This document shows positions 6,136 through 8,351 of a stretch of 24,546 bases of DNA, piece by piece; position 1 is the first letter of the stretch; every line of letters begins with the position of its first letter. A program made the translations under genes and the position numbers. This stretch comes from a virus (taxonomy: Duplodnaviria; Heunggongvirae; Uroviricota; Caudoviricetes): IMG/VR virus record IMGVR_UViG_2872164251_000005, one strand, 5' to 3'. The notes beneath the pieces were generated by a model. The model was not told the DNA's origin, did not search any database, and was given only the letters and a program-made list of their open reading frames with translations.

Positions 6136-6507
6136 GTGGCTGATTTCGATAATCTGTTTGATGTTGCACTTGATCTCGCAGACAAGGCCATTATTCGCAA
6201 TATGGGGATTAGAGCGGTCATTACGTCAGGCCGGCTAAAAGGGATCATGATTTCCGGGGTTTTTGATGATCCTGAAAATATTTCTCTGGTGGCCGGCGGT
6301 GTGCGTATTGAAGACTCTTTACCATCCCTGTTTGTGAAAACAGCAGATATTTTACGGCTGTGTCGCAATGATTCGCTGATGATTAGTCGTGAGTCTTTCT
6401 GTGTGGATCGTATCACCCCTGATGATGGCGGATGTAGTTATATCCGGTTGCGGCGTGAGGGGCTGCCGGGAAACGTAAGGGCAGGACGATATTATGAAGG
6501 GGCTTGA
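6136..6507 (+). CDS. FII: Lambda gpFII-like head-tail joining protein (GTG start)
   Basis: 123 aa starting MADFDNLFD; GVFDDPENIS and VDRI.PDDGG match lambda FII as remembered. GGGAGG RBS upstream. Confidence 0.85.
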   Translation: MADFDNLFDVALDLADKAIIRNMGIRAVITSGRLKGIMISGVFDDPENISLVAGGVRIEDSLPSLFVKTADILRLCRNDSLMISRESFCVDRITPDDGGCSYIRLRREGLPGNVRAGRYYEGA

Positions 6508-6595
6508 GAATGCCATCCGCAATCTGAACAGCCTTGATACCCGTATGGTGCCACAGGCCAGCGCATGGGCGATAAACCGTGTGGCACAGAAAGCG
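6494..6595 (+). pseudogene. Z: Lambda gpZ-like tail protein, 5' fragment (34 codons) cut by IS600 copy 2
   Basis: ATG at 6494 overlaps the FII 3' end. Translation MKGLENAIRNLNSLDTRMVPQASAWAINRVAQKA then runs into the IS left end at 6596. Confidence 0.8.
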
Positions 6596-6659
6596 TGAGG
6601 TAGCCTGAGTTTAACGGACACTCCTTCCTGAAATAGAATGGCATCAGAAGGAGCTAATA

Positions 6660-6962
6660 ATGAGCAGAAAAACCCAACGTTACTCTAAAGAGTTCAAAGC
6701 CGAAGCTGTCAGAACGGTTCTTGAAAATCAACTTTCGATCAGTGAAGGCGCTTCCCGATTATCCCTTCCTGAAGGCACTTTAGGACAATGGGTTACCGCC
6801 GCCAGAAAAGGGCTCGGTACTCCTGGTTCCCGCACGGTGGCTGAACTGGAATCTGAAATTCTGCAACTGCGTAAGGCGTTAAATGAAGCTCGCCTTGAGC
6901 GAGATATATTAAAAAAAGCAACAGCGTATTTTGCACAGGAGTCGCTGAAAAATACGCGTTAA
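6660..6962 (+). CDS. IS600 OrfA
   Basis: 100 aa, identical to copy 1 OrfA except R to K at residue 72. A7G slippery site at 6911-6918. Confidence 0.9.
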   Translation: MSRKTQRYSKEFKAEAVRTVLENQLSISEGASRLSLPEGTLGQWVTAARKGLGTPGSRTVAELESEILQLRKALNEARLERDILKKATAYFAQESLKNTR

Positions 6963-6997
6963 TCGAACAATGGCGACAACAATTTCCCATTGAAGCG

Positions 6998-7816
6998 ATG
7001 TGTCAGGTATTTGGTGTATCCAGGAGCGGTTATTACAACTGGGTACAGCATGAACCCTCAGACAGAAAACAAAGTGATGAGCGGCTAAAACTGGAGATTA
7101 AGGTGGCACATATCCGCACTCGCGAAACATATGGAACCCGGCGGCTCCAGACGGAGCTGGCAGAGAATGGCATCATCGTTGGTCGTGACCGACTGGCACG
7201 TCTTCGTAAGGAGCTGAGGCTACGCTGTAAGCAGAAACGCAAGTTCAGAGCGACTACGAACCCGAACCACAATCTGCCAGTTGCGCCAAATCTGCTGAAC
7301 CAGACGTTCGCTCCTACAGCACCAAATCAGGTCTGGGTGGCGGACCTGACGTATGTTGCCACACAGGAGGGATGGTTGTACCTCGCTGGCATCAAAGATG
7401 TTTATACGTGCGAAATTGTCGGCTACGCCATGGGAGAGCGCATGACAAAAGAGCTGACAGGTAAAGCCCTGTTTATGGCGCTCAGGAGCCAGCGCCCACC
7501 TGCCGGGCTAATCCACCACTCTGATCGAGGTTCACAGTACTGCGCATACGATTACCGGGTCATACAGGAGCAGTTTGGTCTGAAAACATCAATGTCGCGT
7601 AAAGGTAACTGTTACGACAACGCTCCGATGGAAAGCTTCTGGGGAACGCTGAAAAATGAGAGCCTGAGCCACTATCGTTTTAATAACCGGGATGAAGCCA
7701 TCTCAGTAATACGGGAATACATTGAGATTTTCTACAATCGTCAGCGTCGTCACTCTCGTCTGGGGAATATCTCCCCGGCAGCCTTCAGGGAAAAATATCA
7801 TCAGATGGCTGCTTAA
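6998..7816 (+). CDS. IS600 OrfB (transposase catalytic domain), apparently intact
   Basis: 272 aa ending FREKYHQMAA, with the stop inside the IS. The track ORF starts at the first Met; true expression is expected as an OrfAB fusion by -1 frameshift. Confidence 0.9.
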   Translation: MCQVFGVSRSGYYNWVQHEPSDRKQSDERLKLEIKVAHIRTRETYGTRRLQTELAENGIIVGRDRLARLRKELRLRCKQKRKFRATTNPNHNLPVAPNLLNQTFAPTAPNQVWVADLTYVATQEGWLYLAGIKDVYTCEIVGYAMGERMTKELTGKALFMALRSQRPPAGLIHHSDRGSQYCAYDYRVIQEQFGLKTSMSRKGNCYDNAPMESFWGTLKNESLSHYRFNNRDEAISVIREYIEIFYNRQRRHSRLGNISPAAFREKYHQMAA

Positions 7817-7859
7817 AAAAAGAACAAATGGTAGTGTCCGCTATTGCCAGTACACCTCA

Positions 7860-8351
7860 GCGGTCTCGGTTGCCACCCGGCAGGTTGCCGGGAATACCGT
7901 TGCGGGCGATAACCAGGTGAAAGGGATCCCCCTGAAACTGGTACGTCAGCGTGTCCGGGTGTTTAAAGCCAGTCCGTCAGGAAAAATGACGGCCAGGATC
8001 CGCGTTAACCGGGGCAATCTGCCCGCCATCAAACTGAACACAACACGGCGGCGTGCTGGTGAAGGACTGAGAGTGGGAAAATACTTTTTCCGGGGGGCAT
8101 TTGTTCAGCAACTGGCGAATGGCCGCTGGCATGTTCTGAGGTGTCTTCCTGAAGCGCGTTTTGCAACAGGGCATGACCATCAGGGCAGGCTAAGAAAAAA
8201 TCGTCTTCCTGTGGAGGTAGTGAAAATCCCGATGTCCGGACCGCTGACACAGGCATTTGAAGATGCCCGCGATCGCATCATTGCTGCGGAAATGCCGAAA
8301 CAGCTGGGGTATGCCCTGAAACAACAACTGAGGTTACATCTGAGTAAATGA
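7860..8351 (+). pseudogene. Z: Lambda gpZ-like tail protein, 3' fragment after the IS600 insertion
   Basis: In-frame continuation AVSVATRQVAGNTVAGDNQVKGIPLKLVRQRV...KIPMSGPLT, matching lambda Z as remembered. The track ORF 7722-8351 includes IS-derived codons at its 5' end. Confidence 0.8.

Follow-up and report, generated by a model that had tools for sequence, protein, structure and literature searches.

A precise IS600 insertion in the gpZ-like tail gene of a cryptic, ipaH-carrying lambdoid prophage of Shigella flexneri

Results

The interrupted gene

The DNA considered here, IMG/VR virus record IMGVR_UViG_2872164251_000005, is a stretch of 24,546 nucleotides (hereafter the window) that comprises essentially a whole cryptic lambdoid prophage with an ipaH gene, and within it a gene for a tail completion protein resembling lambda gpZ (Z) is interrupted by a copy of the insertion sequence (IS) IS600 (Table 1). 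Read directly from the sequence, Z begins with ATG at 6494 and its codon 34 is GCG at 6593-6595; the element that follows is 1264 bp long, opens with TGAGGTAGCC, closes with GTACACCTCA, and is adjoined on its 3' side by a second GCG at 7860-7862. Its first three bases, TGA, form the stop codon of a 34-aa N-terminal Z fragment (open reading frame, ORF, 6494-6598). When 6494-6595 is joined to 7863-8351, the resulting 591 nt are in frame and encode a 196-aa protein whose residues 1-196 align with positions 1-190 of the 190-position Pfam profile Minor_tail_Z (PF06763; E 5.6e-57), with a score of 193.1 bits against a gathering cut-off of 23.9. The gene also sits where it would in lambda (order FI-FII-Z-U-V-G-T-H), between a Phage_attach match (6136-6507) and matches to Phage_tail_U (8348-8747) and Phage_TTP_12 (8758-9498); it differs from lambda Z in being split into pieces of 34 and 162 codons, within a prophage that is predicted to be unable to make particles. 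A preliminary description of this DNA had placed a precise IS600 insertion at 6596-7859, after codon 34 of Z, bracketed by two GCG triplets and with the frame restored once the element and one GCG are removed. Each of these coordinates is correct, the frame is restored as described, and the insertion is real.

Empty sites in relatives

Because a 3-bp match between flanks has a 1/64 probability of arising by chance alone, and because a second IS600 copy in the window has no such repeat, it is the empty site that provides the decisive evidence for a target duplication. Phage PhiR47_1 and other relatives have ...CAGAAAGCGGTCTCGG... at the site, where GCG occurs exactly once; the filled site has the junctions CACAGAAAGCGTGAGGTAGCC and GTACACCTCAGCGGTCTCGG, and the empty site the sequence CACAGAAAGCGGTCTCGG. 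The Z-U stretch is uninterrupted in the viable phage isolates PhiR47_1, HannyBb, Tritos and others, where it has 97% DNA identity to the reconstructed one. When species-representative genomes were scanned with the 24-nt left flank, five loci came up, and no insertion was present among them (5/5 empty). The single-GCG empty site was found in S. flexneri SFBU1023 (L003), E. ruysiae, E. coli ECMA0423 (L006) and two metagenome-assembled genomes, with SFBU1023 and ECMA0423 being collinear with the window on both sides of the IS at ~98-99% identity. Closer relatives came from a look-up of the FII protein, which led to 13-kb contigs from other assemblies or sequencing runs with an uninterrupted 196-aa Z. 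One contig (L012), found in 13 samples, shows 0 mismatches to the window over 937 + 3916 bp of flank (4.85 kb) and lacks only the IS and one GCG. It is this contig, together with the single-GCG empty sites, that substantiates the earlier characterization of the insertion as precise, simple and recent-looking. When the filled region was compared with the phage collection by megablast, the matches covered the IS part only, in Shiga toxin (Stx) phages, and were uninformative on Z.

Two further observations concern these relatives. When SFBU1023 and ECMA0423 are compared with the window over 2798-6135, they show several single-base deletions in FI and upstream of it (examples match 5899, 6014, 6057, or 5953-5957), which could be either real decay or homopolymer errors of long-read sequencing. 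In addition, the related prophages of E. coli VL7S7 (NZ_CM177009.1, 322689-324805) and O121 201805972 (NZ_CP119441.1, 2617606-2619722) both have an IS1A inside the head-tail joining gene (FII), an IS insertion into this cluster of genes that arose independently.

The filled allele in other assemblies

CP032513.1 (L008) is 100% identical to the window over 2136-10507 (8372 bp), IS included; this record is the genome of S. flexneri serotype 3b strain SFL1520, a MinION and MiSeq hybrid assembly (PMC6424224). A contig of the draft assembly GCA_053146675.1 begins 118 bp inside the IS600 right end and enters Z at the same GCG. In the window, an ORF at 7722-8351 runs from the IS right end into Z, and a 180-aa product that reads across this junction (with a CTG start, as in the GenBank record) was found on seven contigs, that of GCA_053146675.1 included; a look-up with the 209-aa ORF that starts at a TTG and likewise continues from the IS into Z gave no match. 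In 106 of the 210 index blocks of the FII look-up, FII was present only on contigs of <2 kb, a pattern suggestive of short-read assemblies that break at ISEc20 to one side of FII and at IS600 to the other. A small group of strains has the insertion in common, and many near-identical strains lack it.

Table 1. Features of the window, in order of position
Feature	Position	Strand	Remarks
Integrase gene, truncated	1-1023	minus	N-terminal truncation
IS600, second copy	1024-2286	as the copy in Z	99.76% identity to the copy in Z
rusA remnant	between second IS600 copy and Q		
Q antiterminator gene	2379-3074		Intact
Four tRNA genes	3251-3561		Directly downstream of Q; ARAGORN: Met(cat), Arg(tct), Thr(tgt), Gly(tcc)
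IS110-family element	4263-5691 (transposase 4263-5459)	minus	Annotated as ISEc20 family in E. coli O145
FI, FII, Z::IS600, U, V, G, T, H, M, L, K, I, J	after the ISEc20-family element		Gene order
Z (gpZ-like tail completion gene), 5' fragment	6494..6595	+	Codons 1-34; 100% identity to the same part of Z in phage PhiR47_1 and empty-site contigs
Target-site duplication, left copy	6593..6595		3 bp, GCG, codon 34; single GCG in empty sites
IS600 (IS3 family), complete	6596..7859	+	1264 bp; 99.8-99.9% identity to annotated E. coli copies
Left terminal inverted repeat (TGAGGTAGCC...)	6596..6622	+	27 nt, imperfect; inverted-repeat pair
orfA	6660..6962	+	100 aa; ORF with HTH_Tnp_1 match
A AAA AAA slippery heptamer	6911..6917	+	Predicted -1 programmed frameshift fusing orfA to orfB; 385-aa fusion
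Predicted hairpin, probable frameshift stimulator	6920..6960	+	Directly 3' of the slippery site; inverted repeat, -13.1 kcal/mol, z -2.05
orfB, DDE integrase-core transposase	6998..7816	+	-1 frame relative to orfA; rve, rve_2, rve_3, HTH_21
Right terminal inverted repeat (...GTACACCTCA)	7833..7859	+	27 nt, imperfect; pairs with left arm
Target-site duplication, right copy	7860..7862		3 bp, GCG; read directly
Z, 3' fragment	7863..8351	+	Codons 35-196 and stop; collinear with intact Z of L001, L003, L006, L009-L015
U (tail terminator) pseudogene	8348..8747	+	2-bp deletion after 8454: GCGCAGGAACTG in relatives, GCGCAAACTG here
H (tape measure), frameshift	~11083 (H 10223-13053)		1-bp deletion, GGCCGG to GGCGG
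H, second lesion	~10896-10905		In-frame 102-bp loss between two GCTGGGGGT repeats
I (tail tip assembly), frameshift	15220 (I 14865-15505)		1-bp deletion relative to phage mEp332
lom	19113-19712		
stf	19734-21191		
tfa	21257-21766		
ipaH	21946-23697	minus	Intact, 583 aa; LRR_TTSS and NEL (E3 ligase) domains; tail-fibre end of the prophage

The inserted element

IS600 was first described in Shigella sonnei, and by the ISfinder convention copies that share about 95% identity or more are regarded as the same element. The copy in Z has 99.8-99.9% identity over 1264/1264 bp to E. coli copies labelled 'IS3-like element IS600 family transposase' by the Prokaryotic Genome Annotation Pipeline (PGAP/RefSeq), from which it differs by one to a few bases, and the earlier naming of the element is confirmed on this account. 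Of 5426 complete E. coli genomes, 3487 have some match to the element and 1614 a copy that is near-complete (>=80%). The termini are of the TG...CA type (TGAGG...CCTCA), and a -1 slip at A AAA AAA would produce a 385-aa fusion, which is the length of the annotated IS600 transposase; a 385-aa 'programmed frameshift' transposase is annotated by PGAP/RefSeq in other IS600 copies and is also called in the source genome record (L008). When the flanks of six other IS600 copies in E. coli were inspected, 3-bp repeats were seen at four and a 4-bp repeat at one, and the copy without a repeat sits between unrelated genes. Judged by its sequence, the element in Z is IS600 on every count, in its identity, its imperfect 27-nt TG...CA inverted repeats, the predicted frameshift layout of orfA and orfB and the 3-bp duplication, and it shows no difference of note from other copies. 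It looks intact, and the integrity of its ORFs and ends suggests that it may still be active.

The prophage and its earlier lesions

What surrounds Z is the remnant of a phage. No early or immunity region was found between the truncated integrase gene and the rusA remnant, and no terminase, portal, protease, decoration or capsid genes between the Q, tRNA and ISEc20 segment and FI; rather, the IS110-like element of the ISEc20 family occupies the place of all of the head genes (Nu1 to E), and homology to intact prophages restarts at 5692, 31 bp upstream of FI. Farther along, the deletion in U leaves ORFs of 45 and 114 aa, where restoring GG would yield the full 133-aa U, and H is split by its 1-bp deletion into ORFs at 10223-11122 and 11155-13053. 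I appears to be split as well, into ORFs at 14865-15227 and 15212-15505, with the lambda-like C-terminus running on in another frame. A one-base difference is present in phage mEp332 itself at the counterpart of 15316, and the C-terminus of its annotated I also looks frameshifted. With essential particle genes lost or broken, the gene content marks the prophage as a cryptic (defective) lambdoid one. As for the tRNA genes, the one with a cat anticodon is annotated as tRNA-Ile in related E. coli O145 prophages, and the placement of tRNA genes after Q resembles the layout of Stx-type lambdoid phages.

The order in which these lesions arose can be read from relatives in which Z is whole. The junction between ISEc20 and FI, which marks the loss of the head genes, is common to SFBU1023, ECMA0423 and contig L009, all of which have an intact Z. 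The U and H lesions are absent in SFBU1023 and ECMA0423 and present in the empty-site contigs L009-L015. Since contigs with an intact Z already bear them, the IS is younger than the loss of the head genes and than the lesions in U and H, and the distribution of the lesions indicates that the head genes were lost first, that U and H were damaged next, and that IS600 entered Z last.

The window shares its overall organization with the ipaH-bearing cryptic lambdoid prophages ('ipaH islands') of S. flexneri, having a tail module of lambdoid type that includes lom, stf and tfa and is followed by ipaH, as well as many IS and deletions, and it differs from them only in its specific set of lesions (IS600 in Z; frameshifts in U, H and I). 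Carriage of the ipaH effector gene is the likely reason that the remnant has been retained. Strain SFL1520 has been reported to have 15 phage regions, most of them cryptic, and to carry seven ipaH genes on its chromosome (PMC6424224).

A second IS600 copy

The IS600 copy near the left end of the window lies in the same orientation as that in Z, 4.3 kb away from it, and differs from it by two substitutions and one indel. The orfB of this second copy has lost 1 bp from an A-run close to its end (~2218), which lengthens the ORF to 320 aa. The copy has no target duplication, being flanked by CAC on the left and CTT on the right, and it joins the N-terminally truncated integrase gene to the rusA remnant; for these two reasons it appears to be the place where the entire early and immunity region was deleted.

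Discussion

We are highly confident that one IS600 copy entered the gpZ-like gene of an ipaH-carrying cryptic S. flexneri lambdoid prophage at codon 34, that this was the most recent of the prophage's lesions, and that it belongs to the routine expansion of IS600. In the copy-out/paste-in pathway of the IS3 family, which runs through a circular intermediate, the transposase would have made staggered cuts 3 bp apart at GCG, and repair would then have duplicated the GCG triplet; no other rearrangement would be needed. IS600 is one of five IS that have expanded across all Shigella species, and it drives strain-to-strain variation (PMC7373316). The insertion resembles the IS-driven pseudogenes of Shigella (Hawkey et al. 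2020, PMC7373316) in that IS600 lies within a coding sequence and is variable between close strains; it differs from them in that its target is non-functional DNA, such that it would add nothing to functional genome reduction. As to its age, substitution rates in S. flexneri are ~6-9 x 10^-7 per site per year (PMC7373316), and the absence of any difference over 4.85 kb would fit anything up to a few centuries, which justifies 'recent' and no finer date.

What the split of Z means for function has to be considered in light of what had already been lost. The preliminary description had proposed that the insertion by itself would inactivate tail assembly. In lambda, particles that are made without gpZ look normal and are mostly non-infectious (PMC11099176), and gpZ is present in virions, where it was not resolved in the cryo-electron microscopy structure (PMC10721106). 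In a phage that is intact in other respects, loss of Z would therefore abolish infectivity, and the proposal does not stand as regards tail assembly itself, which is not blocked in lambda without gpZ (PMC11099176). Loss of infectivity is hypothetical here and moot in this prophage, because the head genes were gone and U and H were frameshifted before the IS arrived. With the prophage already defective, the insertion would have had no effect on phage production, and, as the latest damage to a prophage that no longer functioned, it was almost certainly neutral to selection.

Four other accounts of the locus would make of it an assembly artefact, an excision, part of a composite transposon or a selected inactivation; the target duplication, the junction found independently, the way in which empty sites are distributed and the older lesions contradict them. 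An artefact, in which the hybrid assembler misplaced an IS600 copy into Z, was the prospect that the preliminary description had raised against itself. Repeats are the usual source of misassembly, and SFL1520 was assembled from MinION and MiSeq data with a genome that contains 355 IS ORFs (PMC6424224). Yet a misplaced repeat would not yield an exact 3-bp duplication with the frame restored on its removal. The insertion is not an artefact, since an independent draft assembly has the same junction of IS end, GCG and Z, and seven contigs encode the product that spans it; we give misassembly next to no credence. Precise excision, with the IS ancestral in the lineage and the identical empty-site contigs as revertants, is a subtler matter, as excision between short direct repeats does happen at low frequency and the flanks of L012 are identical to those of the window, such that direction cannot be read from the flanks alone. 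However, all of the more distant relatives that were examined, which comprise phage isolates as well as E. coli, E. ruysiae and a further S. flexneri, are empty at this site, and among the index blocks read there were 79 with FII contigs of 10-20 kb, from which the contigs read (L009-L015) are all empty-site, as against seven contigs with the junction product. Base-exact excision across a 3-bp repeat is also much rarer than insertion, and reversion seems to us very unlikely.

The remaining accounts concern what the insertion did rather than how it came to be there. It might have been selected, either for locking in the ipaH prophage by blocking particles or costly tail expression, or through an IS-borne promoter that alters expression downstream. 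The prophage does carry the virulence gene ipaH, its late-gene antiterminator Q is still intact, and the ORF at 7722-8351 reads from the IS right end into Z. Against this, relatives whose Z is whole had already lost, or carry broken versions of, the head genes, the early region, U and H, leaving nothing to lock in, and the downstream genes are themselves pseudogenes or remnants, which renders selection for the insertion very unlikely. The two IS600 copies, in the same orientation and 4.3 kb apart, might also be seen as the ends of a composite transposon (a candidate unit of 6.8 kb, IS600-Q-tRNA-ISEc20-FI-FII-Z'-IS600) or as the product of an IS-mediated rearrangement, a view to which the upstream copy lends itself in having no target duplication and in linking the truncated integrase gene to the rusA remnant. 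It founders on the copy in Z, which has its own GCG duplication and is flanked on either side by DNA that is contiguous in the empty-site alleles, and on the outer flanks of the pair (CAC ... GCG), which do not match; its probability is close to nil. A related speculation, to which we would grant only a slim chance, is that the two copies may act jointly, either as a composite that moves Q, the four-tRNA cluster and ISEc20 or as a substrate for recombination, and that the insertion in Z was a selected step in the remodelling of the ipaH island and not a neutral one. If so, deletion between the two copies would remove Q and thereby silence the rest of the late operon beside ipaH.

Some points do weigh against a recent and neutral insertion as the explanation. 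Outside L008, no left junction was retrieved from independent assemblies, and independent support thus comes from the right junction only; for SFL1520 itself, the junctions are supported by the published hybrid assembly and by the junction-bearing contigs of other assemblies. That the empty-site samples L009-L015 belong to the same lineage would follow from sequence identity alone, and neutrality is deduced from gene content.

The finding is an ordinary one; the SFL1520 genome is published and the IS is annotated there. It matters little beyond being a textbook insertion of an IS3-family element, complete with an empty site, a duplication and a reconstructable order of decay in an ipaH prophage remnant, and it leaves the understanding of IS600, of gpZ and of prophage decay unchanged. 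As SFL1520 and a few other assemblies have the insertion and many near-identical ones lack it, it could be of use for marking strains or lineages within S. flexneri.

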